64,000 nucleotides of DNA from Escherichia phage ALITA (PP359570); one strand, 5' to 3'; shown: positions 4,890-30,741, counted from the first letter of the stretch. Numbers and translations: made by a program. Notes: generated by a model from the sequence alone, not told the origin.

Positions 4890-5104
4890 TATTTTGAAAA
4901 TTTTTATTTTTATAAAAAGGGGTGTGGGTTTCATGTACGGAAATCCACCCTCTGAATAATATATCCAGAGTAAGTAGTATTCTGTACTCTGTTAATAAAG
5001 TATTTAATTTGTTTGTTGGATTATGGTGGCTGATCTTTAAAAGGCATACTATCTCTTAACTACTACTTATAACAAAACAGTAAAATCCTTTTTATAAAAG
5101 TACA

Positions 5105-5305
5105 AAATTATTTAAAGTTTTTACAGATTTTCGGGTACAAATTTTGAAAATGAAAAGTTCAAGTTTGGTCAAAATTATTTAAAGTTTTTGTACGTATTTC
5201 TGTCCAGATTTTGAAAATGAAAACTTCAATTTTTTAAAAATTCCCCAGTTTATTTAAAGTTTTTTTGCCTTTTTCCGTAGAAAAATCAAAAATGAAAAGT
5301 TCAAT
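5105..5305. repeat. three imperfect direct repeats (~67-75 bp iterons)
   Basis: Blocks TTATTTAAAGTTTTT (5108, 5175, 5249) and GAAAATGAAAAGTTCAA (5144, 5210, 5287) recur in the same order. Confidence 0.6.
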
Positions 5306-5327
5306 TTCGTGTTTTTATAGGTGTGTT

Positions 5328-5439
5328 AATGAGAATCATTTTCGTTTGTAAATGAGAATCATTATCATTTAACTATGTAAGTGATAATCATTCTCAGTAA
5401 GAGAATGAGAATCATTAGCAAATGAGAATTTTTCTCATT
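5328..5439. promoter_or_regulatory. array of five Fur-box-like operators (AATGAGAATCATT)
   Basis: 13-mers at 5328, 5351, 5380, 5404 and the perfect palindrome AATGAGAA-TTT-TTCTCATT at 5421-5439; the 19-mer ending at 5364 matches GATAATGATAATCATTATC at 16/19. Confidence 0.5.
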
Positions 5440-5674
5440 TACAGAATAACGCGCAGGGGCGGTGTTTGTCTCGCGCTCCCGTGTCCCCTCGCCATACAAT
5501 AAGAATAGCATAACCAATAACAAAAGCAAGCGATTATTTTTATCTTTACATTTCTTTACAAATTTATTTTAGACGAGCTACCGGCGATCAACCTTCCAAC
5601 CAGTGCCCCCTGGTATGTTAGCCCCGCCTTTACGCCGTGGGGTGGCGTTTCCTCTTCTGTATGTAAAACAGTAT

Positions 5675-5693
5675 AAGCCCGATCCCTGGGCTT
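5675..5693 (-). terminator. intrinsic terminator AAGCCC-N7-GGGCTT
   Basis: Hairpin 7 nt after stop of 5701..5967 on minus strand, followed by atactgtttt. Confidence 0.5.
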
Positions 5694-5700
5694 GTCAAGA

Positions 5701-5967
5701 TTATTTTTTGTTTTCTTGCCAGGATAGGACACCTAACCAAAAATACATGTCGCCCCGCGCCCCTGGTGGGATCTTGCTTTCCCCGCCGCCACTGCAAGCC
5801 CATAAATAACCATCAGCGAACGGATCAAAGTGATCTATCTCTTCCACCTTATGATCGCCCAGGTTGAGAACGGTTTCAACCTTTAAGCCCGTTGCGCTTG
5901 CTACCTGGTGCACCGTGCCGCCTTGCCAGCCCAGTGAGTGCATGAGATGTAAAGAAGTATTTGTCAT
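5701..5967 (-). CDS. hypothetical protein (only minus-strand gene of the island)
   Basis: 88-aa ORF with its own promoter/hairpin/purine leader upstream and a terminator downstream. Confidence 0.6.
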   Translation of the reverse strand: MTNTSLHLMHSLGWQGGTVHQVASATGLKVETVLNLGDHKVEEIDHFDPFADGYLWACSGGGESKIPPGARGDMYFWLGVLSWQENKK

Positions 5968-5989
5968 GGTATCGCCCTTTCTTTGTTGT

Positions 5990-6043
5990 GCGCCCTGGTT
6001 GGCGCGGTAGAAAGATGATAGCCGTTTCCTTCATATATAGCAA
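5990..6043 (-). promoter_or_regulatory. promoter + leader hairpin cassette (minus strand) for 5701..5967
   Basis: TTGCTA-N17-TATCAT, then GCGCC-AACCAG-GGCGC hairpin, then acaacaaagaaaggg leader before ATG. Confidence 0.5.
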
Positions 6044-6077
6044 GCAAAAAAGAAATGAAAAAAAGATTAAAAAATGG

Positions 6078-6106
6078 TTGACGTTCCTCACCTGGTAGCG
6101 TAGTAT
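6078..6106 (+). promoter_or_regulatory. sigma70-like promoter TTGACG-N17-TAGTAT
   Basis: Consensus-like hexamers, divergent from the minus-strand promoter at 6015-6043. Confidence 0.45.
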
Positions 6107-6233
6107 TCATCTTGTCGAGGGGGGCAAGACACAACGACAATAAACAATAGGCGGGTGCAATGCAAGACGGGCAAAGGTGAGGATCTCCACAATCCACCGT
6201 CACAATAACATTACTTATAAAAGGTTGATAACG

Positions 6234-6329
6234 ATGATCAAGAAAGAAAATAGCTTGACGGTTGGAACGATTAACGCTATCATTCTTGCCGTTCCATTTT
6301 GGATTGTAGTTGCGGTTATTATTTTCTAA
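6234..6329 (+). CDS. 31-aa hydrophobic peptide (hand-called)
   Basis: ATG..TAA, sequence MIKKENSLTVGTINAIILAVPFWIVVAVIIF; lies between promoters 6078 and 6340. Confidence 0.4.
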   Translation: MIKKENSLTVGTINAIILAVPFWIVVAVIIF

Positions 6330-6339
6330 AAAAATATTC

Positions 6340-6397
6340 TTGACAACGTTTTTTAATCTGATAAGATGTATCACATAGGGCGGCAATAGTGCCGCTC
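6340..6397 (+). promoter_or_regulatory. promoter/hairpin cassette C1 (serves 6420)
   Basis: TTGACA-N16-TAAGAT (TGn extended), cacATAG, hairpin GGCGGCA-ATAG-TGCCGC, leader cataacagaagagagaaataatc. Confidence 0.7.
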
Positions 6398-6419
6398 ATA
6401 ACAGAAGAGAGAAATAATC

Positions 6420-6692
6420 ATGGCATCATATAGCGCATCAATGATTGTAAAGGGTATCACTGGTAAACCTATGCGCGGTGGCGGATCTTTCGCTAACATC
6501 AATATTGATGGACGTTTATCCCTGGACGCAGCGATCACAGTGGCACGGGAAACATTTAAAAAAGAATGTAATTTCAATAAACAAGATTATCTCGGTTTTG
6601 CTATTGAAAAAACCGCGCGCTTTGTGGATTATAAAAGCCCGAAAATGATCGACACTACACTAAAAGCGCAAGATGTAGCGTTTTTGCTTTAA
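6420..6692 (+). CDS. hypothetical protein
   Basis: 90-aa ORF directly behind cassette C1. Confidence 0.7.
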   Translation: MASYSASMIVKGITGKPMRGGGSFANINIDGRLSLDAAITVARETFKKECNFNKQDYLGFAIEKTARFVDYKSPKMIDTTLKAQDVAFLL

Positions 6693-6705
6693 GACTTGAC
6701 ACTGA

Positions 6706-6756
6706 AAAATAATTTGATAATATATACCACATAAGGCGGGGAAATGGTTTCCCGCC
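6706..6756 (+). promoter_or_regulatory. promoter/hairpin cassette C2 (serves 6779)
   Basis: TTGACA-N16-TAATAT, hairpin GGCGGGGAAA-TGG-TTTCCCGCC, leader aaatcaaagaaaggg. Confidence 0.7.
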
Positions 6757-6778
6757 AAATCAAAGAAAGGGTAATGCA

Positions 6779-7141
6779 ATGAGCAAGCAAATCAATACTA
6801 TCATGTTTAATCTGGTATCTTTCCGCGATGACGTGAAAAACCTTTCGCGTGATGCAGTGGATGCACGGATCGAAAGCTATCGCACACAGATCGCAACGTT
6901 ACCGCTGAAACGTGATCAACATGCCGCTAATATGATGCTTGATGCTATGATTAAAAAGATGATTCAATGTGATCTTACCCTGGCTTATGAATATGCTGGC
7001 GATCTCTTTGTAACATATAGCAAGCCCGTTCCAGGTATGAGCACCACGGAAGAATTGCATGCCTTAAATCTGCGACAAGATGCATGGGATAACATGCGCC
7101 GTGTTATGGTATGGGTAGAAAGCGGTAAAATTTACGAATAA
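6779..7141 (+). CDS. hypothetical protein
   Basis: 120-aa ORF behind cassette C2. Confidence 0.7.
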   Translation: MSKQINTIMFNLVSFRDDVKNLSRDAVDARIESYRTQIATLPLKRDQHAANMMLDAMIKKMIQCDLTLAYEYAGDLFVTYSKPVPGMSTTEELHALNLRQDAWDNMRRVMVWVESGKIYE

Positions 7142-7147
7142 AAACGG

Positions 7148-7200
7148 TTGACATTGCACTAAAACCTGATAAGCTATCTTAAAGCGGGAATAGTTCCCGC
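7148..7200 (+). promoter_or_regulatory. promoter/hairpin cassette C3 (serves 7220)
   Basis: TTGACA-N16-TAAGCT, hairpin GCGGGAA-TAG-TTCCCGC. Confidence 0.65.
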
Positions 7201-7219
7201 TTACATAGGATAAAACTTT

Positions 7220-7366
7220 ATGAAACAATATGTAATGAGTATTCACACCAAAAACGGCGCTACTGTTACGACTCCGGCACGGTTTGCACTTGTAAACCGT
7301 TGCAAGAGACTAAAACGAGAGCTAAAAAACAACCGTGCAACGGGCTTTAAACGCTGGGGAGGATAA
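7220..7366 (+). CDS. 48-aa basic protein (hand-called)
   Basis: ATG 20 nt after hairpin C3; ends GGAGGATAA, which supplies the RBS for the next gene. Confidence 0.5.
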   Translation: MKQYVMSIHTKNGATVTTPARFALVNRCKRLKRELKNNRATGFKRWGG

Positions 7367-7368
7367 TC

Positions 7369-7629
7369 TTGTTTTTTCTAAAAGTTTTTGATAATGTGAT
7401 CGCTTTTGAACATGCTACAACGTTCGACCTGGCGAGATACGCTATCAGGTTTAAAGATAATGTTTATCCCCGTGCTGGCGGCGGTTACACTATTTTTAAT
7501 CATCGCAACGCGCAACTAACTGATATAACTAATCCAGATCCTGGAGTGTATCGGATAGGCTGGCTACCGTCAAAAGATGCGGCAAGCATGTTTAAGGTAT
7601 GTAAACTACTAACAGAAGAGGCGAACTAA
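7369..7629 (+). CDS. hypothetical protein (TTG start)
   Basis: 86-aa ORF, GGAGG 6 nt upstream of TTG. Confidence 0.55.
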   Translation: MFFLKVFDNVIAFEHATTFDLARYAIRFKDNVYPRAGGGYTIFNHRNAQLTDITNPDPGVYRIGWLPSKDAASMFKVCKLLTEEAN

Positions 7630-7630
7630 C

Positions 7631-8185
7631 ATGGGGCGTGAATATGTGATCCAGTCCTGGGTAAAGCATGATGCTAATGATCCGCGCATAATACCAGATG
7701 ACATGATCGATCACATGGTAGGGTATAGCGGGGAGCAGATAGGAAATCGAGCGGCAAAGAGCAACGGCAACACCAGGACGCGATCCGTTCGCCCTGGATG
7801 GCTGGCAAATGGTAACGCTGACATTGCAAGCGCCGCAGATCCAAGCGATGACGCTAAAAATAATCCCTTATACAGTATTGATCCGGCTTTTAAGGTGTTG
7901 GAAGAGTATCCCGCTAAATTAGCCGCACTAGATAAAGCATACGAAGAAAAACGGGTGGCATGGACTGTATACAACACCGCTAAAATGGTGCTAGATGCAA
8001 AATTGATTAAAGCCCAGGAGAAGATCAATAAACTTGTTACCATAGCGCAAGAGGAAGACCAGGACGACCAGGAGGAAGAGGAAGAAATCATGCCTAACCT
8101 GGAAGAGGAAGAGATCCAGCCATACACGCCGACAGAAGAGGAAAAAATACAAGCCTTAAAAAATTATAAAAATTGTATTGTGTAA
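7631..8185 (+). CDS. hypothetical protein with strongly acidic C-terminus
   Basis: 184-aa ORF, 1 nt after previous stop; tail QEEDQDDQEEEEEIMPNLEEEE. Confidence 0.65.
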   Translation: MGREYVIQSWVKHDANDPRIIPDDMIDHMVGYSGEQIGNRAAKSNGNTRTRSVRPGWLANGNADIASAADPSDDAKNNPLYSIDPAFKVLEEYPAKLAALDKAYEEKRVAWTVYNTAKMVLDAKLIKAQEKINKLVTIAQEEDQDDQEEEEEIMPNLEEEEIQPYTPTEEEKIQALKNYKNCIV

Positions 8186-8188
8186 GGC

Positions 8189-8245
8189 TTGACATATGCA
8201 AACAAGCCCCGTAATATGTACCACATAGAGCGGGGCAACCCCCTC
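8189..8245 (+). promoter_or_regulatory. orphan promoter/hairpin cassette C4 (no ORF behind it)
   Basis: TTGACA-N17-TAATAT, cacATAG, GAGCGGGG-CAA-CCCCCTC hairpin, aaaggtgaaataaaaatc leader runs straight into the next promoter. Confidence 0.55.
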
Positions 8246-8265
8246 AAAGGTGAAATAAAAATCAC

Positions 8266-8293
8266 TTGACAACTGAAATCAGTAAGCTATAAT
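8266..8293 (+). promoter_or_regulatory. sigma70-like promoter TTGACA-N16-TATAAT (serves 8331)
   Basis: Perfect consensus hexamers; no GC hairpin in this leader. Confidence 0.6.
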
Positions 8294-8330
8294 GCTTATA
8301 TAAATTAAAGCGTTACTAAGGAATAAAATC

Positions 8331-8696
8331 ATGGCTAAAAATATCAATGTTTCTGCTTATGCTACCCTGGCTAACACTGCTAAAATTGAACTATCCAGCA
8401 TTGAAGCGGTACATATTAGCGCCCGTCGCTGGTTTCAAAAGTCTTATGGTAATACTTATTTCTCTTTGATGGTTGACGTTGAGATCGGCGGTAAACTGAT
8501 TGAAGTCGTTAACGTTCCGTTTCAATATGGTTATGGTGATCATTTTGATACCGTTGCCCTAGAAGAGTTTAGCAAGGTTATCAACCTGGAAGGTAAAGAC
8601 TTTTCAAATTATGCTTACCTTTCCCGTTTTTGCCGTGATAATGGGATCGCTGTATACAGTCATGCAAGCGATGTTAAACGTAAAAAAGATTTATAA
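8331..8696 (+). CDS. hypothetical protein
   Basis: 121-aa ORF, AAGGA RBS. Confidence 0.7.
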   Translation: MAKNINVSAYATLANTAKIELSSIEAVHISARRWFQKSYGNTYFSLMVDVEIGGKLIEVVNVPFQYGYGDHFDTVALEEFSKVINLEGKDFSNYAYLSRFCRDNGIAVYSHASDVKRKKDL

Positions 8697-8702
8697 AAAG
8701 TA

Positions 8703-8766
8703 TTGACAGCACGAATAAAAAGCGTAAAATGTTTTATATCAGGACGGGGGAACGGTTTCCCCTCCT
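8703..8766 (+). promoter_or_regulatory. promoter/hairpin cassette C5 (serves 8786)
   Basis: TTGACA-N16-TAAAAT, hairpin AGGACGGGGGAA-CGG-TTTCCCCTCCT, leader taacaaagagagaaataaaa. Confidence 0.65.
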
Positions 8767-8785
8767 AACAAAGAGAGAAATAAAA

Positions 8786-8968
8786 ATGGCTAAATGCACT
8801 ATCTGTAAGAAAGAAATAGTATTAGTTCCAAGCGCCCGTGAACGTGCCGCTAAGTTTGGTGGCAAACCGTCAGACTATACAAAAATGTTCACTACCCATG
8901 CAGCTTGCCAGGTAGCGAAACGTTCACAAGAAAGCGTAGAATTAATGCGTAAACTTTCCAAAAAATAA
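8786..8968 (+). CDS. hypothetical Cys-containing small protein
   Basis: Start moved to MAKCTICKK because the longer ORF (8729) would read through the promoter and hairpin. Confidence 0.6.
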   Translation: MAKCTICKKEIVLVPSARERAAKFGGKPSDYTKMFTTHAACQVAKRSQESVELMRKLSKK

Positions 8969-8970
8969 TA

Positions 8971-9029
8971 TTGACAAAGTATTTTATTACTATATAATGG
9001 TTTACATCGAGAGCGGGAATAGTTCCCGC
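8971..9029 (+). promoter_or_regulatory. promoter/hairpin cassette C6 (serves 9054)
   Basis: TTGACA-N16-TATAAT, hairpin GCGGGAA-TAG-TTCCCGC. Confidence 0.7.
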
Positions 9030-9053
9030 CTCACTGAAAAAGAGATTAACATC

Positions 9054-9293
9054 ATGGCTAAATCTAAAATGTACAACGGTCACAAAAACAAAACTCATTG
9101 GAATGTAAGCCTTTGGATCAACAACGATGAAGGTTTTTATAATCTTGCGCGTGAATTTATCGCAGCTAACACCAATAAGAATGACGCAGCGCGGGATATG
9201 ATGTTATTTCTTGAAAGTATGGATCAAGATAAAACGCCAGACGGTTACAAGTTCAGTAAAACTGCAATCCGTGCCGCTATGGTTGGAATGTAA
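9054..9293 (+). CDS. hypothetical protein (HWNVSLWINNDE motif)
   Basis: Start at MAKSKMY downstream of the hairpin; 79 aa. Confidence 0.65.
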   Translation: MAKSKMYNGHKNKTHWNVSLWINNDEGFYNLAREFIAANTNKNDAARDMMLFLESMDQDKTPDGYKFSKTAIRAAMVGM

Positions 9294-9306
9294 AGGAGAC
9301 ATAAAA

Positions 9307-9387
9307 ATGAAACATCGTTCGACCTATCTGACAAAACGTTTTAGCTTAGATCATAAATTAGGCTATTACGGAAGAAATAGAAAATAA
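9307..9387 (+). CDS. 26-aa basic peptide (hand-called, weak)
   Basis: GGAGA RBS then ATG; fills the 9294-9388 gap. Confidence 0.3.
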   Translation: MKHRSTYLTKRFSLDHKLGYYGRNRK

Positions 9388-9388
9388 T

Positions 9389-9448
9389 TTGACAACGTTT
9401 AAAATTAGTGTAAGATGTATCACATAGGGCGGGAAATGGTTTCCCGCC
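9389..9448 (+). promoter_or_regulatory. promoter/hairpin cassette C7 (serves 9471)
   Basis: TTGACA-N16-TAAGAT, cacATAG, GGCGGGAAA-TGG-TTTCCCGCC, leader aaatcaaagaaagg. Confidence 0.7.
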
Positions 9449-9470
9449 AAATCAAAGAAAGGTTATCATT

Positions 9471-9698
9471 ATGGCTATCGTTATTGTTCGCGTATCCGGT
9501 ACGGTTGGGATCTCCCAGGTAGTAGCAGTTATCACCGAGAAGAAAGGAGATGATCTTCACTCCTCCTTGAATAGCTGGGCGGTCGCTAACTTTGGGCAAT
9601 GGTCGAGCGTTGAGTACATCGAATCCTACCAGGTGCCAACGATTAGCCTAACCGATCTAAATGTTGATCGCTTGTTGTGCCTGGATCAATTAAACTAA
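9471..9698 (+). CDS. hypothetical protein
   Basis: 75-aa ORF behind cassette C7. Confidence 0.65.
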   Translation: MAIVIVRVSGTVGISQVVAVITEKKGDDLHSSLNSWAVANFGQWSSVEYIESYQVPTISLTDLNVDRLLCLDQLN

Positions 9699-9706
9699 AA
9701 ATAATA

Positions 9707-9764
9707 TTGACAAGATAACTAAAATCAGTAAAATGTAATGCATAGGGCGGCAATAGTGCCGCTC
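9707..9764 (+). promoter_or_regulatory. promoter/hairpin cassette C8 (serves 9786)
   Basis: TTGACA-N16-TAAAAT, gcATAG, GGCGGCA-ATAG-TGCCGC. Confidence 0.7.
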
Positions 9765-9785
9765 CTAGTGAGAGAGATTATCAAG

Positions 9786-10001
9786 ATGGCTAATATCCGC
9801 ACACTGTTAAAAAATGCAAGTCAAGTTTTATTTTCAGATGACGAGTATTTCAACAAAGACATTACAGGCGTGAAAAATTTAAAAGACGTGAAGGATGTTA
9901 TCGGTATCCGTGGATCTTTACGTAAAGGTGACATATACGGTAACAAGGTGCAATATAAACTGTCAAAAGATTATGATTTTACTTTGACATTTATTTCATA
10001 A
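9786..10001 (+). CDS. hypothetical protein
   Basis: Start at MANIRTLL after the hairpin; 71 aa. Confidence 0.6.
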   Translation: MANIRTLLKNASQVLFSDDEYFNKDITGVKNLKDVKDVIGIRGSLRKGDIYGNKVQYKLSKDYDFTLTFIS

Positions 10002-10007
10002 AACCGC

Positions 10008-10068
10008 TTGCAATACTGCAAAAATAAAGTAAACTGTATTCATCAAGGCGGTGGAATAGCCCACCGCC
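10008..10068 (+). promoter_or_regulatory. promoter/hairpin cassette C9 (serves 10092)
   Basis: TTGCAA-N16-TAAACT, hairpin GGCGGTGG-AATAGC-CCACCGCC, leader taacaaagagaagagg. Confidence 0.6.
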
Positions 10069-10091
10069 TAACAAAGAGAAGAGGAAACATC

Positions 10092-10262
10092 ATGATCACT
10101 TTCGCTACCCGTGAAGCCGCTCGCAACGTTGCACGTAAAGTTAACGCCGCCAACCTGGGCGCTACGCTTAAAGCCCCGGTAAAAGATGAATCAGGTAAAT
10201 GGATCTTCCCTGGTCTGCGTCACGCTGATAAGCTGGGAACGTTAACGCTAAAAAATAAATAA
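10092..10262 (+). CDS. hypothetical protein (56 aa)
   Basis: Start at MITFATRE after the hairpin. Confidence 0.55.
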   Translation: MITFATREAARNVARKVNAANLGATLKAPVKDESGKWIFPGLRHADKLGTLTLKNK

Positions 10263-10269
10263 AATCCGC

Positions 10270-10328
10270 TTGACAGTAGCATCATTTATAAGTAAAGTAA
10301 CAACAACGGCGGGAAATGGTTTCCCGCC
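10270..10328 (+). promoter_or_regulatory. promoter/hairpin cassette C10 (serves 10349)
   Basis: TTGACA-N17-TAAAGT, GGCGGGAAA-TGG-TTTCCCGCC, leader atcaataaagagataagatc. Confidence 0.7.
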
Positions 10329-10348
10329 ATCAATAAAGAGATAAGATC

Positions 10349-10708
10349 ATGAAATCAGTAAAAGCAATTAAAACTTACATTGTGTCGGCTATTTCTTTTG
10401 ATGGTACTACAACCGAAAAAGAAAAGATCACCGAACTGATGCGCCGTTTTAACTCTGAATACTGGTATCCCGATAATCAAAAACGTTACAATTATAACGT
10501 GATCAAGGCAATAGCCTCATGGTTACAAGGTTTACCGTCAGAAATCAATATTGCTTTTGATTATAACGAGATCGATCACTTGTTAATTGAATGGAAGTAC
10601 ATAAAAGAAACAAGCAAAGAAACAACCGTTACCCGTGAGCGGGAAAATTATTGGTTATATATTGCAAGCATGATCGTAATCCTGGCAAAACAGCATAACG
10701 CGGCGTAA
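10349..10708 (+). CDS. hypothetical protein
   Basis: 119-aa ORF behind cassette C10. Confidence 0.7.
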   Translation: MKSVKAIKTYIVSAISFDGTTTEKEKITELMRRFNSEYWYPDNQKRYNYNVIKAIASWLQGLPSEINIAFDYNEIDHLLIEWKYIKETSKETTVTRERENYWLYIASMIVILAKQHNAA

Positions 10709-10723
10709 TTAAGAGGAAAAAAC

Positions 10724-10861
10724 ATGAACGCATCACAGCAGATCGAAAAATTCAACCGCAGCAAGGCGCGTAAAGATTGGAACGAAGAGATCACCAAAAA
10801 AGGCGACAAGCGGAACAAAACAAAAAGAGATCGCAGCACAAAAAGATACTGGAACGAATAA
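10724..10861 (+). CDS. 45-aa lysine/arginine-rich protein (hand-called)
   Basis: AAGAGGA RBS, ATG; ends 6 nt before the terminator. Confidence 0.45.
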   Translation: MNASQQIEKFNRSKARKDWNEEITKKGDKRNKTKRDRSTKRYWNE

Positions 10862-10867
10862 CAAAAA

Positions 10868-10888
10868 GGGCGCAATAAGCGCCCTTTT
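10868..10888 (+). terminator. intrinsic terminator GGGCGC-AATAA-GCGCCC + TTTT
   Basis: Perfect stem plus T-run; same design as 14803 and 15959. Confidence 0.65.
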
Positions 10889-10978
10889 AGCTTATATAGA
10901 GGCTTGTTACCCATAGGCAATGGTAACGCCAGGGCAAGCCTATAAATCAACGTTAGACGGCTTTACAGGAGCTTTAAA

Positions 10979-11161
10979 ATGAGATTAGAAGAAATAAGCA
11001 AGGCACTAGCCCAGGGGCAAAGGTTAAACGCCCGTTATCGTGATCAATATGGCTTCATAACTAGCGGCGTGATCCTGGGGATTGAAGGCAATAAGATTTT
11101 TATTGACACGTTGAAAAACGTTGTATATAGTGACAATATAATCTCAATAAAACATATATGA
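10979..11161 (+). CDS. hypothetical protein
   Basis: 60-aa ORF with AGGAG RBS. Confidence 0.55.
   Translation: MRLEEISKALAQGQRLNARYRDQYGFITSGVILGIEGNKIFIDTLKNVVYSDNIISIKHI
11103..11131 (+). promoter_or_regulatory. sigma70-like promoter TTGACA-N17-TATAGT (inside 3' end of previous gene)
   Basis: Consensus-like hexamers ~40 nt upstream of 11170. Confidence 0.45.
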
Positions 11162-11169
11162 GGCAAGAA

Positions 11170-11571
11170 ATGAAAAAATTATTGATCGCTGGTTTAATCT
11201 CTTTTGGCATGGTTGGAACATCTAGCGCGGCGATATCCTCCACAGTAGCAGAATTAAGCGCCGTTGATGCAATGGAAAACGTCATGCTTATTAATAATGC
11301 GATCCCCGATGAAATCATGGAGGATTCACACATGATCGCTTATGGTGCTGTTACACAACTAACGGCAAAAATAGATAAATCTATTGTTAATGGCTTAAAT
11401 GAAGATGTACCATGTGAAATTATTACCAGTGTGCTCACTACTCAAAATTTTACGCCGTGGTTAAAAAGTATTCAAAAAGTACACAGTACAGCCGCAGATC
11501 GTAGCAATGAAAAACTAGTGTCAGCACTTGCAACGTATACCCTAGCAAAATGCACTGAAATAAAAGATTGA
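11170..11571 (+). CDS. secreted protein (signal peptide)
   Basis: MKKLLIAGLISFGMVGTSSA-A signal-peptide-like N-terminus; start chosen at MKKLL. Confidence 0.65.
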   Translation: MKKLLIAGLISFGMVGTSSAAISSTVAELSAVDAMENVMLINNAIPDEIMEDSHMIAYGAVTQLTAKIDKSIVNGLNEDVPCEIITSVLTTQNFTPWLKSIQKVHSTAADRSNEKLVSALATYTLAKCTEIKD

Positions 11572-11596
11572 CAGCATAGAAAGCACGTTATAAGAT
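11568..11596 (+). promoter_or_regulatory. sigma70-like promoter TTGACA-N17-TAAGAT (serves 11619)
   Basis: Consensus hexamers, no hairpin; leader acacacaacaaaggag. Confidence 0.55.
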
Positions 11597-11618
11597 ACAC
11601 ACAACAAAGGAGAACTAC

Positions 11619-11921
11619 ATGAACGGCATAGCTAAAACGTTTTTTCTTTTTTCTGGTGTAAATGATCCATCAATAAAAGTCGATAGTGTAAAAGAAAACA
11701 ATACTATCACCGCTAAATTGTTTCAAGATGAAACAAATAACGTGCTAATCATTAATCTTAAAGAAATAACTAAAGGTTATTATACTATTGCTTACCATGC
11801 GATCTATCATGCTGGTACTAGCGAGGAAGTGCAAACAAGCAACAACGAAAGCGCGGCGCTACCTGGTGATCTGGTGCTGGGTGTTATTAGTTTAATTGTC
11901 AATGATTTTTTTAAGGAGTAA
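11619..11921 (+). CDS. hypothetical protein
   Basis: 100-aa ORF with AAGGAG RBS. Confidence 0.6.
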   Translation: MNGIAKTFFLFSGVNDPSIKVDSVKENNTITAKLFQDETNNVLIINLKEITKGYYTIAYHAIYHAGTSEEVQTSNNESAALPGDLVLGVISLIVNDFFKE

Positions 11922-11925
11922 AACC

Positions 11926-12021
11926 ATGCCCTATTTACATTTATTTTTCGGGATCTTATTGTCAGGATCTTTTTTCTTCTGTATGCTTGTTTCTATTGTA
12001 AACCACGTTTTAAGACATTAA
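11926..12021 (+). CDS. 31-aa hydrophobic peptide (hand-called)
   Basis: AAGGAG RBS in the end of the previous gene; MPYLHLFFGILLSGSFFFCMLVSIV. Confidence 0.4.
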   Translation: MPYLHLFFGILLSGSFFFCMLVSIVNHVLRH

Positions 12022-12030
12022 GGAAACAGC

Positions 12031-12150
12031 ATGAAAATTATTCCCGTACAATATAGCGTAATAAATCCAGCATATGAGGAAGGAAGGAAAACAAGCATGG
12101 CTTTATGTTGTATTGTTACTATAGCCATGTTGTTATATATTGTGTTTTAA
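12031..12150 (+). CDS. 39-aa peptide with C-terminal TM segment (hand-called)
   Basis: AAGGAAACAGC then ATG; ...MALCCIVTIAMLLYIVF. Confidence 0.4.
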   Translation: MKIIPVQYSVINPAYEEGRKTSMALCCIVTIAMLLYIVF

Positions 12151-12179
12151 TAGGTTTTATAGTTGTACGCTTTAAAGGC

Positions 12180-12231
12180 TTGACAATTTTTTGTTATGCT
12201 TTAAAATATATCTTGAAAACGGCAAAGGCCG
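12180..12231 (+). promoter_or_regulatory. promoter TTGACA-N16-TAAAAT + short CGGC-AAAG-GCCG hairpin (serves 12251)
   Basis: Consensus hexamers; degenerate version of the cassette hairpin. Confidence 0.5.
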
Positions 12232-12250
12232 CAAACAAAAGGGTAAAATT

Positions 12251-12574
12251 ATGAAATCTGTGATCGGTGTTTATTTGGATAACTCTGATTTTTTCTATCA
12301 TCGCGCGCGTTTACTTGATGCTATTGAAATGATAGAATCAGGCTTTAAAGAGTATCGCCTTGCACATGATGACCTGGAAGCATTACAGGGCAATAGTGTT
12401 TTTACATTGCAAGCGAAAGCACTATGCAAAAGCCGGATCGAGATTGCAAGTAAAAAGATAGAGCGCGGCATGTCCTGGTTACGCACCGCAGAAATCAACA
12501 TGGGGCAATGGTACGGCAAAAACTTAGAAAATAAACATGCTTTTGTAAATGTAGAAAATATTGAAGATTATTGA
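12251..12574 (+). CDS. hypothetical protein
   Basis: Start at MKSVIGVY downstream of the promoter; 107 aa. Confidence 0.6.
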   Translation: MKSVIGVYLDNSDFFYHRARLLDAIEMIESGFKEYRLAHDDLEALQGNSVFTLQAKALCKSRIEIASKKIERGMSWLRTAEINMGQWYGKNLENKHAFVNVENIEDY

Positions 12575-12636
12575 TTGACAGCACACCTGATAAGGAGTAT
12601 ATTGTATCTCATAGAGCGGGGAAATGGTTTCCCCGC
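12575..12636 (+). promoter_or_regulatory. promoter/hairpin cassette C15 (serves 12657)
   Basis: TTGACA-N17-TATATT, tcATAG, GCGGGGAAA-TGG-TTTCCCCGC, leader ttaacagaagagataagat. Confidence 0.7.
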
Positions 12637-12656
12637 CTTAACAGAAGAGATAAGAT

Positions 12657-12941
12657 ATGAAGATCACAAAAGCACTTTCCAACTATGCAGCACGTCGCGG
12701 ATTATGCTTATCCGTTGAAAACTTAGGGAAAGAAGATTTTTTGTGCTTTTGGGAGCTTGAGAATGATAATGAGTGGATCTTCTCTTATTCTATCTGCAAA
12801 GATCAAAATGGTTGCTTGTTAACCTGGCGCGGTAATATCTATCTACCGGAAGAAATCAAAGAAGAATTACCAGGCACGATCATGACTGAGAAACAGCTTA
12901 AGGAAGTGATTAATTTTGTAGGGCAAAACATTAAAAAATAA
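12657..12941 (+). CDS. hypothetical protein
   Basis: 94-aa ORF behind cassette C15. Confidence 0.7.
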   Translation: MKITKALSNYAARRGLCLSVENLGKEDFLCFWELENDNEWIFSYSICKDQNGCLLTWRGNIYLPEEIKEELPGTIMTEKQLKEVINFVGQNIKK

Positions 12942-12942
12942 T

Positions 12943-13001
12943 TTGACACTAGGCAAACAACGTAGTAAAGTTTATCACATAGGGCGGCAATAGTGCCGCT
13001 C
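12943..13001 (+). promoter_or_regulatory. promoter/hairpin cassette C16 (serves 13024)
   Basis: TTGACA-N17-TAAAGT; 54 nt from tatcacatag to ATG (12973-13026) are identical to 6369-6422. Confidence 0.7.
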
Positions 13002-13023
13002 ATAACAGAAGAGAGAAATAATC

Positions 13024-13194
13024 ATGATCCCAACTATGTTTTATGTATCGCGCAAAGGTCACAATATTTTTTGGTCTGAAGATTTAAATGAAGCCATGAC
13101 GTTTGCCCGTGATCGTGTTGCTATCGGTGGCGTTAATATTACCGTAACCGATGAAAACGGCATTGAATACTACAACGGCGACGATGAAGAGTAA
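13024..13194 (+). CDS. 56-aa hypothetical protein (hand-called)
   Basis: ATG at the end of the duplicated leader; MIPTMFYVSRKGHNIFW... Confidence 0.55.
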   Translation: MIPTMFYVSRKGHNIFWSEDLNEAMTFARDRVAIGGVNITVTDENGIEYYNGDDEE

Positions 13195-13201
13195 TTAATA
13201 A

Positions 13202-13223
13202 GGCGGGGGGAGTATTCCCCGCC
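13202..13223 (+). promoter_or_regulatory. leader hairpin without promoter (C17, serves 13243)
   Basis: GGCGGGG-GGAGTATT-CCCCGCC then atcaataaagagataaatc ATG; no TTGACA upstream. Confidence 0.5.
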
Positions 13224-13242
13224 ATCAATAAAGAGATAAATC

Positions 13243-13512
13243 ATGAAAATATCATTGGACGTTGCAATCAAGGCCATCGAATCCGGTTACACCCTGGTAA
13301 AAGATGATAAGGCTAAAACCGTGCACCACGTTAACAAGGAAACAGGCGAAAGCATGATCACATATAAAGCCGCCTACTTTCTCCAATCAGTAGCAGATCC
13401 GCGCGTACAACGCCAGGTTACGGCGGCTATTGCTAAAAAATTATGTGCTTTACAGGGTACAAGTTTTAACGAGATCGCCCCGTGTTTTGACTGGTCGAGC
13501 TTGAAAAAATAG
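13243..13512 (+). CDS. hypothetical protein
   Basis: 89-aa ORF behind hairpin C17. Confidence 0.7.
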   Translation: MKISLDVAIKAIESGYTLVKDDKAKTVHHVNKETGESMITYKAAYFLQSVADPRVQRQVTAAIAKKLCALQGTSFNEIAPCFDWSSLKK

Positions 13513-13513
13513 T

Positions 13514-13575
13514 TTGACAATACGCGGTTATCTGGTAAAGTGTACGACATAGGGCGGGGCAATAAGGCAACGCCC
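13514..13575 (+). promoter_or_regulatory. promoter/hairpin cassette C18 (serves 13594)
   Basis: TTGACA-N16-TAAAGT, acATAG, GGGCG...CGCCC stem with large loop. Confidence 0.6.
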
Positions 13576-13593
13576 ATTAATGAGGGTAGAATC

Positions 13594-13698
13594 ATGTTAG
13601 AGAAAATTTTCACGGTTGTAGTAGTGGGCCTGGCGTTATCGGTTGGAGTGGTTGCAACTATGGCTAACATGATCCTATCTTCCCACGGTATTGGATAA
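13594..13698 (+). CDS. 34-aa membrane peptide (hand-called)
   Basis: GAGGG RBS; MLEKIFTVVVVGLALSVGVVATMANMIL. Confidence 0.45.
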   Translation: MLEKIFTVVVVGLALSVGVVATMANMILSSHGIG

Positions 13699-13708
13699 GG
13701 TGAATCAA

Positions 13709-13924
13709 ATGATCACGAATAAGACAGGTAAAACGGAATTCTTGCGCGGCTTGCAAATAGGTAAACCTGAGATCTGGCATTGCACTAAATCCGCGCATAA
13801 TGAAATGAAAGATTTTACCGCTACTTTACAACGTGTTAAAATATCTATCACGCAGAAAAAAGCCTTGTTAGTAGTAGAAAACGAGATACCGCAAACCATT
13901 ATTATTGTCGAGCGTACAGCATGA
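13709..13924 (+). CDS. hypothetical protein
   Basis: ORF track starts at TTG 13691; ATG 13709 has better TAAGGTG spacing. Confidence 0.55.
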   Translation: MITNKTGKTEFLRGLQIGKPEIWHCTKSAHNEMKDFTATLQRVKISITQKKALLVVENEIPQTIIIVERTA

Positions 13925-14307
13925 AAACTGAAATCATTATTGAAATCATCAACGGTTATAAAGAAGCCTTTATTTTTGCTGAATCAGCCAGGGATCATGA
14001 AGGTAATTTTATAGATGACATGACTGATCATGAGTTTTCAGATCAAGCCCATCAGCGGATCATACATGACGTGGCGGCGTTTTGTGATGCCAATGATGCC
14101 GCTATCTCTGAGGCAATGAGCGACGGCGCTACAGCAAACCAGATCGGGAATGACTTACATTTCACCCGTAATGGTCACGGCGTAGGCTTTTGGGATCGCC
14201 CTGAAATATACACTACTAACACCGCCAACCGACTAACAAATGCAGCTAAATTAATGCCATCGGTGCATGCTTACATTGGTGAAGATAATTTGATTTATAT
14301 TGAATAA
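13921..14307 (+). CDS. hypothetical protein (RNGHGVGFWD motif)
   Basis: 128-aa ORF, ATGA overlap with the previous gene. Confidence 0.7.
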   Translation: MKTEIIIEIINGYKEAFIFAESARDHEGNFIDDMTDHEFSDQAHQRIIHDVAAFCDANDAAISEAMSDGATANQIGNDLHFTRNGHGVGFWDRPEIYTTNTANRLTNAAKLMPSVHAYIGEDNLIYIE

Positions 14308-14313
14308 AAAGTA

Positions 14314-14372
14314 TTGACACCGATCCCCAATATGGTATGATTTACCACGTAGGCGGGAAATGGTTTCCCGCC
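14314..14372 (+). promoter_or_regulatory. promoter/hairpin cassette C19 (serves 14396)
   Basis: TTGACA-N16-TATGAT (TGn extended), cacGTAG, GGCGGGAAA-TGG-TTTCCCGCC. Confidence 0.7.
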
Positions 14373-14395
14373 AGGTAATCAAAAAGGTAAATACT

Positions 14396-14785
14396 ATGCG
14401 CAACCTGGTTTCTGTTTCTAACGTTGAAAAATTCCAATCTTTACAGGGTATCGTTAACAACGTAGCGCCTTTTTTAGTCAATGGCTTGATTGCAAAGATG
14501 AAAAATAAACATCATGCGGCATGGTCTGCTTACTGCTTTGATAATGATGAAAAAGCGGCTGAAATGATGTTAGATATGCTGTTAGATAGTGTAGAAACAT
14601 CTTTACCGGAAAACATCGCAGAAGAGATCACCTATCGTTATAATATGGCGATCACTTACCAGGAGGTTGCGCAATTTAATATGATGGATGATGACGAACA
14701 ACAGGATCAGGAAATGTTCTGGGAGTATGCAGATCGTCAATCGGCTTTTGATGAAAAGTTAGCGATGTATTATAACGAATATTAA
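14396..14785 (+). CDS. hypothetical acidic protein
   Basis: Start at MRNLVSV after the hairpin; 129 aa. Confidence 0.6.
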   Translation: MRNLVSVSNVEKFQSLQGIVNNVAPFLVNGLIAKMKNKHHAAWSAYCFDNDEKAAEMMLDMLLDSVETSLPENIAEEITYRYNMAITYQEVAQFNMMDDDEQQDQEMFWEYADRQSAFDEKLAMYYNEY

Positions 14786-14802
14786 TACACGGTAAAAGAA
14801 AG

Positions 14803-14826
14803 GGGCGCACTAAGCGCCCTTTTTTG
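14803..14826 (+). terminator. intrinsic terminator GGGCGC-ACTAA-GCGCCC + T6
   Basis: Perfect stem plus tttttt. Confidence 0.7.
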
Positions 14827-15170
14827 TATTCTTTTTTCACGATGGAAACAACACGTAAAGAATAGGCGTAAAGGTGGCGTAAAACAGCCTAAAACCGATT
14901 ATAACCGCTTAAACAAGGTAATAATGACTAATCACCTTGCCAGGATGAAAAAGCTGTTATAAAGCTATTTAGAGCGTTTAAAGCACATAGGAAATAATTT
15001 GCTTTTTATCTTGCCTTTTATCCTGCTTTTGATTATTATTATGGAACGGGCGGCACCTGGGGACAGGGGAAGATAATCACCGGAAGATCCCGCTATATAT
15101 TAATAGCTAATACCTATCAAACAACAAAACATCAAAGGAATAAACTATCAAATCTTTACAATCCTACCTA

Positions 15171-15231
15171 TTGACACAGGATCACCCTTATACTAATATG
15201 TATCCCGTAGGGCGGGAAATGGTTTCCCGCT
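15171..15231 (+). promoter_or_regulatory. promoter/hairpin cassette C20 (serves 15250)
   Basis: TTGACA-N17-TAATAT, ccGTAG, GGCGGGAAA-TGG-TTTCCCGC. Confidence 0.7.
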
Positions 15232-15249
15232 TGATATAGGAATCATACC

Positions 15250-15483
15250 ATGATCGAACAAATTAAAAGCACTACACCAAATGTTAACGGCAATGTTTCA
15301 CACTTTATCGGTGATAATGAAAGGGGCACACCATACGCCGCCGTAACCGTGCAACCTAATGGCGATTATTGGTTTACCGTGTACGGATCATACTCTTTCG
15401 GACGCCCGGCACATGATAAGATCTTGCAAGCGGTTAAACCTGCGGGGAAGAATATCACAGCAGAAAAATTTTATAAAAAATAG
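15250..15483 (+). CDS. hypothetical protein
   Basis: 77-aa ORF behind cassette C20. Confidence 0.7.
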   Translation: MIEQIKSTTPNVNGNVSHFIGDNERGTPYAAVTVQPNGDYWFTVYGSYSFGRPAHDKILQAVKPAGKNITAEKFYKK

Positions 15484-15484
15484 C

Positions 15485-15513
15485 TTGCTTTATTTCTTCT
15501 GTTAACTTATAGT
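15485..15513 (+). promoter_or_regulatory. promoter TTGCTT-N17-TATAGT with degenerate cassette remnant (gcGTAGGGC, no stem)
   Basis: Hexamers plus a conserved GTAGGGC word, but the palindrome is lost. Confidence 0.45.
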
Positions 15514-15558
15514 TATCGCGTAGGGCAAACAATTTTAAACGGTAAACGAGGAATCACC

Positions 15559-15942
15559 ATGAGCAATATCATCAACCTGGCAGCGACTGTAAACGGTAAA
15601 GACTTTAACGGCGCTGTAGACCGTGATCCTATGTGGTGCTTATCAGTGTTTAAAGGCGATCTGGTTGAAGTTAGAACAACCGAAGGTTATAGCGACGATT
15701 ATAAATGCGAGATTCATTTACACAACTGGTACACGGGTAAAACTTATGCGCTGAATCACGCGTTTATCGGGAAAATTGAATATCGCGAGATGATCGACGA
15801 AGAAACGGGGCAAGATTTTAGCGAGCATGTTTATATTCGTTCAGAAACATTAGCCGAACGTTTGATCGAGAAAATGAAAGCAAAAAATAAAATTAATTTA
15901 TCTCATTGGATTGATATAACAAACGATCCGGCTTATAAGTAA
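15559..15942 (+). CDS. hypothetical protein
   Basis: 127-aa ORF with GAGGA RBS. Confidence 0.7.
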   Translation: MSNIINLAATVNGKDFNGAVDRDPMWCLSVFKGDLVEVRTTEGYSDDYKCEIHLHNWYTGKTYALNHAFIGKIEYREMIDEETGQDFSEHVYIRSETLAERLIEKMKAKNKINLSHWIDITNDPAYK

Positions 15943-15958
15943 ATAACATTTCACACCA

Positions 15959-15985
15959 GGGCGCACAAAGCGCCCTTTCTTTTTA
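15959..15985 (+). terminator. intrinsic terminator GGGCGC-ACAAA-GCGCCC + T-run (end of island)
   Basis: Perfect stem plus tttcttttt. Confidence 0.7.
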
Positions 15986-16189
15986 CCTAAATAAAGATGA
16001 TAGCTTTTACCTATCAAAAACGTTCACCGAAAAAAGTGAATAGATCGCGGTATCGAACTAATCAAGCAACAGATGAACAACCATACCATGAAGGTCATAA
16101 GGCGCTTACAACGTGTTTTAGACCGCTTATTTTTAATTTCTTCATGTAACTATCTGGCAAAAACAGCCTTTTTCTTGTCTTTCCTCTTA

Positions 16190-16260
16190 AATGATAATCA
16201 TTCTTATTTATAGCTGATTATTTATGCAATTTATTGCATAATGCAATAATGATAATCATT
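16190..16260. promoter_or_regulatory. two exact Fur-core 13-mers AATGATAATCATT flanking a triple ATGCAAT/ATTGCAT palindrome
   Basis: 13-mers at 16190-16202 and 16248-16260; ATGCAAT-TT-ATTGCAT-A-ATGCAAT at 16224-16247. Confidence 0.5.
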
Positions 16261-16640
16261 CCTAACTTAAGACCATCTAACCTATAAAATAATAAGTTAT
16301 CTAACTAAATTAAAACTAATTATCTCACTTTTATTTATAACTTACTGTTACTATCTCATTGATAACCTTATATTAAACAACAATAACTAATATAAATCAT
16401 TACTAAGCTAAATATAATCTATCTAACCCTTAAAACTACAATTATAATCTATCTAATTGTTGCACAAAGTAACTATTAAATTGTTAGTAACATTACTAAA
16501 TAATTCACATCCTATCTATTTATGATCTAATCTTTACCTTTCTATCTATTACCTAAATAACCATTTCATACAGTAATTATTCCATATGGTAATCATTTCA
16601 TACAATAATTATAACAAGAAATATAATTCGCAAGCGTATC

Positions 16641-16816
16641 ATTAGCAGCCTATGCCGGACACATAGGCGGCTAATAATAACGCAACTACACACCCCACAT
16701 AATAACCATCAACGATGGTTATTATTTGTGTTTATGTAGCTTGCAACAATTGCAAGCGCAACAATATACATGGTATATTGTATTCCCTTACATTGTTGCG
16801 GTGCGTTATTATTAGC
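16641..16816. repeat. nested perfect palindromes / cruciform-capable element
   Basis: Outer arms GCTAATAATAACGCA (16670) / TGCGTTATTATTAGC (16802) enclose hairpins at 16699-16725 (12 bp), 16739-16757 (8 bp) and 16762-16780 (8 bp); a further hairpin lies at 16642-16673. Confidence 0.6.
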
Positions 16817-17119
16817 TAATGTTTAGAACATTGGCTATAATATAAGCTGCATATAATAAACTATGCAATAATAAACATGGTGAATAATGACACCGATGAT
16901 CATAATGCGCCACCCTCCAGGGGGCGCTATGTAAACACAAAGAAATCTTTCTTGTCAAGAAAATATTGCCACTATTGCGCAAAATTATTTTTATCTGAAT
17001 AGATGATTTTTCATACTATTGCCCCTATAACATACCTCATTTGTTGAGCCTACTTTCTTAAAAGCGCAATAAATCAGAATTATCTTGATTTTTAGGGCGT
17101 TTTATAGTACAGAAAGTAT

Positions 17120-17138
17120 GCAAATGATAATCATTATC
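17120..17138. promoter_or_regulatory. Fur-box-like site (17/19 to GATAATGATAATCATTATC)
   Basis: gcaAATGATAATCATTATC read directly from the sequence. Confidence 0.5.
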
Positions 17139-17305
17139 AGCTATCTTCCACGGGTAGCACTATTTCACGCCAGATCATTTCATTTGGCAAGGTGTATATA
17201 GATGTTTAGACTTGCCAAGCCATTGATTTACTTAGAATTTATCTGTTTTGTTGTGAGTAATACCTTTCTTACTCAGAAAATAATCAAAAGTCTTATAAGT
17301 CATTG

Positions 17306-17336
17306 AATGATAATACAAATGATAATTATTCTCATT
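17306..17336. promoter_or_regulatory. tandem Fur-hexamer-like repeats
   Basis: AATGATAATacaAATGATAATTATTCTCATT. Confidence 0.4.
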
Positions 17337-17695
17337 GATATTTGAGGGGGACGGTCGGCAGAAATCGGGGGGCGCTGAAAATCGCGTTAAGCACCTCTCG
17401 CAAGCGAGCAGTATTTTGCGGCAAGTTATTGATATTATTGACTTTACGCTTATGAAAAGGGGGTGTGTCGAAATAAATCGGGTATACCGGAAAATTTTTG
17501 TGGCATAGATATTTATTTGTCTATATTATGTACAAAGGGGTGTATTAAAAATAATAGGTATATATAGAATAATTGATAGGGAAATCCTATACTAATCCCT
17601 CCATTAATGATGTTTCTATGTTGCTGTTATTGTAATAGATGAAAAGACGCTGTATGATGTGTGGCATGAAACGTAAACTTATAAAGGAGTCTGAT

Positions 17696-30618: not shown

Positions 30619-30741
30619 TTACCCCCAATGTATATGGGAAATTAACCAAAAGATAAATTCCCAAAAACACCAACCAAGAAAAGTTAATGGAATTATAAAA
30701 GCTATCAGAGCAGTCTTCCAGCCTTTCCACAATGTTTCCAC
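30619..30741 (-). CDS. 40-aa Trp-rich membrane peptide (hand-called, GTG start)
   Basis: GTG overlaps the methyltransferase stop (TAGTG) after GGAGGAATA; stop lies 1 nt before the next ATG. Confidence 0.4.
   Translation of the reverse strand: METLWKGWKTALIAFIIPLTFLGWCFWEFIFWLISHIHWG

Follow-up and report, generated by a model that had tools for sequence, protein, structure and literature searches.

Our analyses support the occurrence, in a 64,000-nucleotide stretch of DNA from Escherichia phage ALITA (PP359570; hereafter the window, by which the whole stretch is meant), of a family of palindromic operators which, judging from their sequence, are probably Fur boxes of the host type and are probably bound by the host regulator Fur. 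The sites concerned (R1 to R4, between positions 16190 and 17336) share their motif with an array further left in the window, and both loci are free of open reading frames (ORFs). Three lines of evidence carry this interpretation, namely the scores of the sites against a Fur matrix built independently of the phage, the restriction of the motif to non-coding DNA, and its recurrence in other phage genera whose flanking DNA has ceased to align. A first-pass annotation of the same DNA had proposed an operator-like motif of Fur type bracketing an island of genes; the evidence speaks for the operator and, as described below, leads to a different view of the island.

Few bacterial operators are as well understood as Fur boxes. 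What would be new here is their presence as a conserved, cross-lineage feature of the ends of virulent phage genomes, the box family itself being known. We found no earlier report of Fur-box arrays in the terminal repeats or untranslated control regions of virulent phages, including in the literature on rV5, the BASEL collection and T5, and the literature search returned no paper linking Fur with phi92-, rV5- or T5-like phages. The setting of the sites differs from that of every Fur site known to us or found in the literature. If Fur does bind them, therapeutic and model phages (phi92, the BASEL Bas60-62 group, the relatives of rV5, and T5) carry a built-in link to the iron status of their host. 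In the gut, as in the infected host, iron is in short supply.

Fur-type boxes in two non-coding loci

The 13-mer AATGATAATCATT occurs exactly at 16190-16202, 16248-16260 and 17123-17135 and nowhere else in the 64 kb, for which dinucleotide shuffles predict 0.02 copies. All nine matches with at most one mismatch fall within 5328-5416 or 16190-17330, in agreement with the earlier count of at least nine copies confined to the two ORF-free flanks, and the 13-mer matches of a complete 148-kb relative (OZ035770) are likewise restricted to the two non-coding loci. The 19-mer at 17120-17138, GCAAATGATAATCATTATC, agrees with the classical Fur 19-mer, GATAATGATAATCATTATC, at 17 of 19 positions. Sites with at most three mismatches to the latter number six in the window (0.04 expected), four of them in the two ORF-free regions and a fifth being the 17120 site read on the reverse strand. 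Further right lies a tandem pair, AATGATAAT at 17306-17314 and AATGATAATTATT at 17318-17330. The 13-mer coordinates, the 17/19 match, the tandem pair and a triple palindrome between R1 and R2 had all been listed by the first-pass annotation, and each was recovered exactly as described. A better reading of the motif is obtained in another register, as a 19-bp palindrome of 9-1-9 form, AATGAKAAT-N-ATTMTCATT, whose centre lies 3 bp to the right of the one first chosen; R1, R3 and R4 match 16-17 of its 18 positions.

The minimal Fur unit has been described as a 7-1-7 or 9-1-9 palindrome, and boxes overlapping at offsets of 3 or 6 bp, 6 bp being typical, as the form taken by Fur clusters (Chen et al. 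2007, PMC2189734). Besides its 17/19 match to the classical 19-mer, R3 contains a perfect 7-1-7 box (model TGATAATnATTATCA), TGATAATCATTATCA at 17125-17139. Overlapping boxes offset by 6 bp are found both in R3 (17117/17123) and in the left array (5345/5351).

The matrix was derived from 21 distinct Fur boxes in iron-induced promoters of Acinetobacter baumannii (PMC3055841, Table 1), the motif having been seeded on experimentally determined E. coli sites. Its consensus, AATGATAATCATTATCATT, equals that of the phage sites. Scored by leave-one-out, the 21 real boxes obtained 10.1-25.4 bits (median 19.2), a range within which R1-R4 lie at 12.2-25.3 bits; the left array scored 15.5-25.9 bits. Markov shuffles of the window yielded 1.8 matches of at least 10 bits and 0.15 of at least 15 bits. 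The two loci alone hold 11 matches at the lower threshold, two of which are duplicated through the direct terminal repeat (DTR) described below, and in OZ035770 all matches of at least 15 bits are confined to the same two non-coding loci. Searched in the literature as exact strings, AATGAGAATCATT and AATGATAATCATTATCA led mostly to papers on Fur or metal regulation, among them papers that use them as Fur boxes.

The genome end and the conservation of the boxes

By megablast, the region belongs to Justusliebigvirus (phi92-like myophages, Stephanstirmvirinae), with ~95% identity to phages Nernie, inny and EmilieFrey, and its source is a virulent phi92-like E. coli myophage with a linear genome. 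The phi92 record (FR775895.2) annotates a 343-bp DTR at both ends (DTR-L, 1-343; DTR-R, 148270-148612). Positions 17047-17389 of the window are colinear with and homologous to this repeat and share its boundaries, and other phage records (PHB05) terminate precisely at 17046. In the annotations of phi92 and Paula the right arm is closed by the gp248 homologue, the last gene (15559-15942, Phage_30_8 domain), together with its terminator; 15977-17046 is untranslated right-end DNA, and the genes of the left arm begin near 17640. What had been described as the right flank is the physical end of the linear genome, and the island is its right-terminal ~12 kb of small genes, which appears bracketed because the assembly is circularly collapsed.

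R3 and R4 lie inside the DTR, so that both sites are present at both ends of the virion DNA, and R1 and R2 stand in non-coding DNA ~800 bp inside the right end. The 13-mer of R3 starts 76 bp from the left terminus, and R4 ends 53 bp before the right DTR boundary. Both boundaries share the heptamer GTTR/AGC (the slash marks the boundary), which is a likely terminase nicking motif; TGTTGAGC and CGCGTTAAGCAC are kept in other genera, the former sometimes in two or three copies. The map is corrected in this respect, the flank being a genome terminus endowed with conserved cut-site heptamers and with a covarying structured element considered further below, all of them unannotated.

Boxes of the same family persist across genera although the surrounding DNA no longer aligns. 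In Phapecoctavirus (Schickermooser, ZCKP1, AV125, phiWec190, SF1-1), KP13-26 and Citrobacter phage Tr1, a box is found ~230 bp past the gp248 terminator, in the DTR-equivalent, or in both, and wherever the DTR-equivalent has boxes, one of them always lies 79-82 bp downstream of TGTTGAGC (all genera checked). Sites also occur at equivalent positions in unclassified Stephanstirmvirinae. At a threshold of 14 of 18 matches, 1-8 sites are present in the Vequintavirinae (4MG, SSE121, CR3 and IMG/VR contigs), and the homologous non-coding regions of Phapecoctavirus, KP13-26, Tr1, 4MG, SSE121 and CR3 hold 1-8 sites (at least four except in SSE121) against at most 0.4 expected. In SSE121 and CR3 a perfect symmetric variant, AATGAGAAT-C-ATTCTCATT, is set between the hexamers TTGAAT and CAGAAT at a spacing of 18 bp.

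The left array also gave a weak blastn match to T5-like phages. In T5 (AY587007.1), 9468-9637 comprises the direct repeats C1-C4 and the palindromes E-I of the untranslated Repeat Region 3, in the left terminal repeat; these repeats adjoin the 7.9% nick, just to its left, in the region of the injection stop signal. Boxes in this DNA score 16.3, 25.9, 18.3 and 17.7 bits with the Fur matrix, the T5 19-mer AATGAGAATCATTATCATT is identical to positions 5351-5369 of the window, and boxes are also present in T5_ev219 (1159-1673). Davison's analysis of the injection stop region discusses DnaA boxes and makes no mention of Fur (bioRxiv 10.1101/866236). No homologue of the proteins of the T5 first-step region was detected in the window. 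Since T5-like phages carry identical boxes without protein homology, a shared host factor is the simplest binder, and a better one than a phage-specific protein. DnaA boxes, which in a T5-type injection stop are paired within inverted repeats, are absent from the arrays and the right flank, their window-wide count being that of chance.

Table 1. Fur-like sites, genome-end features and neighbouring elements, with positions in the window
Feature	Position	Strand	Remarks
Left array	5325-5439		Five to six Fur-like boxes of the same family; 15.5-25.9 bits; ~12 kb from the right genome end
Intrinsic terminator closing the last gene of the linear genome	15958-15976	+	The ORF-free right end starts here
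Fur-like site R1	16190-16208		AATGATAATCATTCTTATT; 23.2 bits; 16/18 of the 9-1-9 consensus; position conserved in Phapecoctavirus and KP13-26
Triple palindrome ATGCAAT-TT-ATTGCAT-A-ATGCAAT	16224-16247		Between R1 and R2
Fur-like site R2	16245-16266		Contains the exact 13-mer, but its right half is weak; scores 12.2 bits and, in the classical register, 15/19
Structured nucleic-acid element	16649-16816	- (tentative)	Four helices, including a 15-bp long-range helix pairing 16670-16684 with 16802-16816
GTTG/AGC heptamer, left DTR boundary	17043-17049	+	Left genome end begins at 17047
DTR, 343 bp	17047-17389		Single copy in the collapsed assembly; from alignment to phi92 DTR-L and DTR-R
Promoter-like TTGATT-17-TACAGA	17085-17113	+	Read by eye, below scan threshold; predicted start on R3
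Fur-like site R3	17117-17141		Pair of boxes overlapping at a 6-bp offset (11.6 and 15.8 bits); 17/19 of the classical 19-mer
Segment between R3 and R4, 103 bp	17157-17259	+	Promoter-like TTGGCA-17-TAGACT at 17184-17212 (TTGACA in phi92)
Fur-like site R4	17303-17336		TTGAAT-GATAAT, then AATGATAATTATTCTCATT; 25.3 bits; 17/18 of the 9-1-9 consensus
GTTA/AGC heptamer, right DTR boundary	17386-17392	+	DTR ends at 17389

A possible regulation at the genome ends and rival explanations

A regulatory role of the boxes is a further step, and one to be stated with more caution than binding itself. The reading that we prefer is that host Fur-Fe2+, bound to the sites, controls promoter-like modules situated at the ends of the genome; taken as a whole, it is one for which the sequence makes a case just short of evenly balanced. 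When iron is plentiful, Fur-Fe2+ dimers would occupy the boxes once the DNA is in the cell. By position, the boxes fall on promoter-like modules or next to them: the start predicted for TTGATT-17-TACAGA coincides with R3, and R3 and R4 together flank a segment with a promoter-like sequence. Their occupancy would block the host RNA polymerase and keep non-coding or leader transcription at the genome ends off. Under iron starvation, Fur would be released and transcription from the genome ends turned on. This polarity, with repression of the end modules in iron-replete cells and release under iron limitation, is put forward tentatively, with somewhat greater reserve than the gating as such.

Two modules read by eye, TTGATT-17-TACAGA and the TTGAAT-18-CAGAAT of the Vequintavirinae, would fit an overlap of the sites with promoters, but both are weak and their spacing varies. 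The TTGATT -35 hexamer is kept in the alignment of Justusliebigvirus, Phapecoctavirus and KP13-26, and not in Citrobacter phage Tr1. The segment between R3 and R4 is inverted in phage AMO3598 (94% identity), where it is flanked by the inverted repeats GGCACTATT / AATAGTGC, and probably also in pEC-M2929-1AR.1, as suggested by a two-piece blast match. It may constitute an invertible promoter and, given its inversion in AMO3598, its transcript would run into a Fur-like box in either orientation.

Several points weigh against Fur binding or against the gating of transcription by it. A sigma-70 scan of the right-flank sites reached 9 of 12 positions at best, revealed no strong overlapping promoter and gave a total not above that of shuffles; the spacing of the promoters read by eye is not conserved between genera, and -10-like hexamers within the Fur boxes themselves confound promoter calls. 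No iron-related gene is preceded by a site, the nearest ORF downstream of R4 being ~300 bp away. A comparison of 11 Justusliebigvirus sequences showed the sites to exceed their neighbours in conservation by a narrow margin only, but such a within-genus test is rendered uninformative by too low a divergence, and the inversion in a single genome inflates variability at 17170-17260. The matrix was obtained from promoters of Acinetobacter, with E. coli sites as the seed, and not from an E. coli chromatin immunoprecipitation set. Furthermore, the Fur consensus is the same in all known hosts, and a phage-encoded mimic therefore cannot be told from Fur by host range. Finally, growth occurs in iron-replete laboratory media, and any repression is therefore not essential.

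Instead of repressing, Fur or another host protein might act as an architectural factor in transactions of the genome ends (DNA entry with a T5-like injection pause, DTR recombination or circularisation, terminase assembly), for which IHF at lambda cosB offers a model. In favour of such a role, R3 keeps a constant distance of 79-82 bp from the cut motif TGTTG/AGC in five lineages despite divergent intervening sequence, and the other cut motif, GTTA/AGC, follows the end of R4 at 53 bp. The distance of the left array from the right end amounts to 8.1% of the genome length, the gene layout in between mirroring the T5 first-step region, and the T5 boxes (DRC repeats and palindromes E-I, 9468-9637) adjoin both the 7.9% nick and the stop of first-step transfer (bioRxiv 10.1101/866236). 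However, R1 and R2 (~800 bp) and the left array (~12 kb) are too distant from the cut sites for terminase recognition, the arrays are without DnaA boxes, unlike those of T5, the T5 pre-early genes showed no protein homology here, and the constant spacing may merely reflect the conserved TTGATT module that lies between. On balance, we regard an architectural role as unlikely. A narrower candidate, that of terminase recognition repeats accessory to pac or cos sites, was rejected, the boxes not being confined to the neighbourhood of the cleavage site: R3 and R4 stand 76 and 53 bp from the two cut motifs, R1 and R2 ~800 bp away, and the largest array ~12 kb away.

If not Fur itself, the binder could be a phage-encoded dimeric DNA-binding protein whose specificity coincides with that of Fur or mimics it. 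Sites that are nearly perfect palindromes and vary symmetrically (TGAGAAT-C-ATTCTCA in SSE121 and CR3) are to be expected of any dimeric regulator, and most small early proteins of these phages lack known function. Against this, a tblastn search with E. coli Fur gave only one match, at E = 5.5, to an ORF without Pfam match, and no DNA-binding Pfam domain was present in the 15 nearby or candidate ORFs scanned, in which NADAR and Phage_30_8 were found. The motif equals the Fur consensus at 17-18 of 18 positions, an unlikely coincidence, and T5-like phages carry identical boxes without detectable similarity between their first-step ORFs and the window. Moreover, abundant host Fur would occupy the sites regardless. 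A phage-encoded binder is thus improbable, and Fur of the host remains the binder that we favour.

The boxes might also benefit the phage by their number rather than by their position. In the Fur titration assay (FURTA), one Fur box carried by a multicopy plasmid is enough to relieve the repression of chromosomal Fur targets. On this principle, ~10 to 12 high-affinity boxes per genome, multiplied by replication, would titrate Fur and derepress iron uptake, RyhB and nrdHIEF. The number and strength of the boxes (the 11 matches of at least 10 bits in the two loci, two of them duplicated in the DTR) and the conservation of the arrays even where no ORF follows are consistent with such a sink. A sink, however, needs no fixed positions, yet the sites are conserved in position relative to the termini and to conserved elements, and we hold this explanation to be a little more improbable still.

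The proposal of the first-pass annotation that the two clusters loop or silence the block between them, or are remnants of one formerly continuous control region, can scarcely be maintained. One motif family does occur on both sides of 5700-16000, but no evidence of looping was obtained, and the right cluster stands at the physical genome end, with part of it repeated at the opposite end. The block's first genes at least, those close to the left array, are served by their own strong sigma-70 promoters, each of the two clusters retains its separate context in relatives, and we know of no case in which Fur loops DNA over 10 kb.

Neighbouring elements and comparison with known systems

The structured element in the right flank is 94% paired over eight distinct sequences from three lineages, compared with 22-48% in slid controls. 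Nine pairs are changed on both sides, and the covariation score of 0.202 was reached by none of 500 shuffles (0.072). The set comprised Justusliebigvirus, Phapecoctavirus, KP13-26 and Citrobacter Tr1, and to the last of these nothing else in the right flank can still be aligned. It is probably an RNA, and the large excess of A-C mismatches (nine cells) over G-T (one cell) hints at an RNA of the minus strand. It is not in Rfam; Rfam (gathering and E-value) and ARAGORN tRNA scans of both non-coding regions gave only noise.

Between R2 and R3 stretches a tract of ~380 nt (16262-16640) that is strongly depleted of G and rich in A and C (GC 0.30, GC skew -0.24) and in which TATCTA repeats are scattered. 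A CA-rich tract just as poor in G occupies the equivalent position in Phapecoctavirus. If transcribed rightward, the tract of the window could serve in Rho loading or as an unstructured leader. The ATGCA...TGCAT core of the triple palindrome is partly conserved in two other genera (ZCKP1, KP13-26), and its heptamer ATGCAAT shows no enrichment over the window as a whole (24 copies, with 16.8 +/- 3.8 expected). The motif GGGGTGT-N-AAAAATAAT-GGTATA occurs at 17446-17475 and 17533-17562, just past the DTR, and at 4917-4930, before the left repeats, these being the only copies of this form in the window; it has equivalents in ZCKP1 and KP13-26 and may be a phage-specific promoter or binding site.

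To the right of the left array, positions 5420-5720 (core 5543-5667) form an ORF-free, GC-rich element that is far more conserved than its surroundings and is matched by 251 phage records. Even in Cronobacter CR3 and in phages of Klebsiella and Pectobacterium the core retains 83-86% identity, while for the wider element the identity to Salmonella SSE121 is ~76%. In all lineages the left edge of the element is adjoined by a Fur-like palindrome. It is flanked by a strong minus-strand promoter, TTGACA-17-TATACT (5698-5670), and by plus-strand terminator-like hairpins (5624-5648), has no Rfam or tRNA match, and may represent a new non-coding RNA or cis element. The covariation term given by RNAalifold for it was only -0.32, the sequence being too invariant. 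Just upstream of the array, 5089-5307 holds three direct repeats of ~70 bp (ATTTAAAGTTTTT...GAAAATGAAAAGTTCAA) that look like iterons, and in the Vequintavirinae the equivalent place is taken by three repeats whose sequence is a different one (CTCGATCGA...AAAACGTATTTTTT).

Pfam searches identified a protein with a NADAR domain, encoded immediately to the left of the left non-coding locus (4338-4889), a Sir2-family protein (28600-29412) and a C-5 cytosine DNA methylase (30741-31730), for which a counter-defence or defence-related role is plausible. Four records labelled as Campylobacter phages with C. jejuni as host (MG065639, MG065645, MG065656, MG065689) are ~94% identical to ALITA across the region, which suggests that they are contaminated or mislabelled; the same may hold for matches to Acinetobacter and Pseudomonas phages.

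Compared with the Fur boxes of enterobacteria, which form clusters as at fhuF and ryhB, the phage sites have the same consensus, palindromic form and 6-bp overlaps, and scores in the upper range. They differ in that they do not lie upstream of genes for iron acquisition or storage and are placed in ORF-free DNA of a virulent phage, partly in a terminal repeat. Furthermore, the right-flank sites are without an overlapping strong sigma-70 promoter, whereas 83% of E. coli Fur clusters overlap promoters (Chen et al. 2007, PMC2189734). Temperate phages also carry Fur boxes, e.g. upstream of sitABCD on lambdoid prophages (PMC6969025), and have in common with the present case a host Fur site on phage DNA. 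In the lysogen, however, those boxes control a cargo iron/manganese transporter, while here the phage is virulent, the sites are multiple and no iron gene is involved.

As for the genome end itself, the repeat of the window aligns end to end with the phi92 DTR, with few substitutions, and both Fur-like sites are present in phi92. The repeat exists in two copies in phi92 and in one in the window, as a result of the collapsed assembly, and the phi92 record annotates nothing within it.

The closest parallel in arrangement is Repeat Region 3 of T5, which has the same boxes, at a spacing of ~23-36 bp, in untranslated DNA tied to the terminal repeat and ~8% of the genome length from the end. T5 differs in its 10-kb repeat, its paired DnaA boxes and the nick beside the array, in place of which the window has a 343-bp repeat and no DnaA boxes. 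From the comparison of the two, one may conceive, as a doubtful but far-reaching extension of Fur binding, that at least two unrelated virulent coliphage lineages (phi92/rV5-like and T5-like) place Fur-box arrays at their untranslated ends, where Fur would either report on iron status or act physically on the ends as they enter and replicate. The phi92-like array, 8% in, and the terminal sites would then delimit a first-entering segment like the pre-early segment of T5, and in T5 the boxes would form part of the injection stop signal. The parallel bears on the 60-year-old question of what halts T5 DNA at 8% of its length, and is cheap to test.

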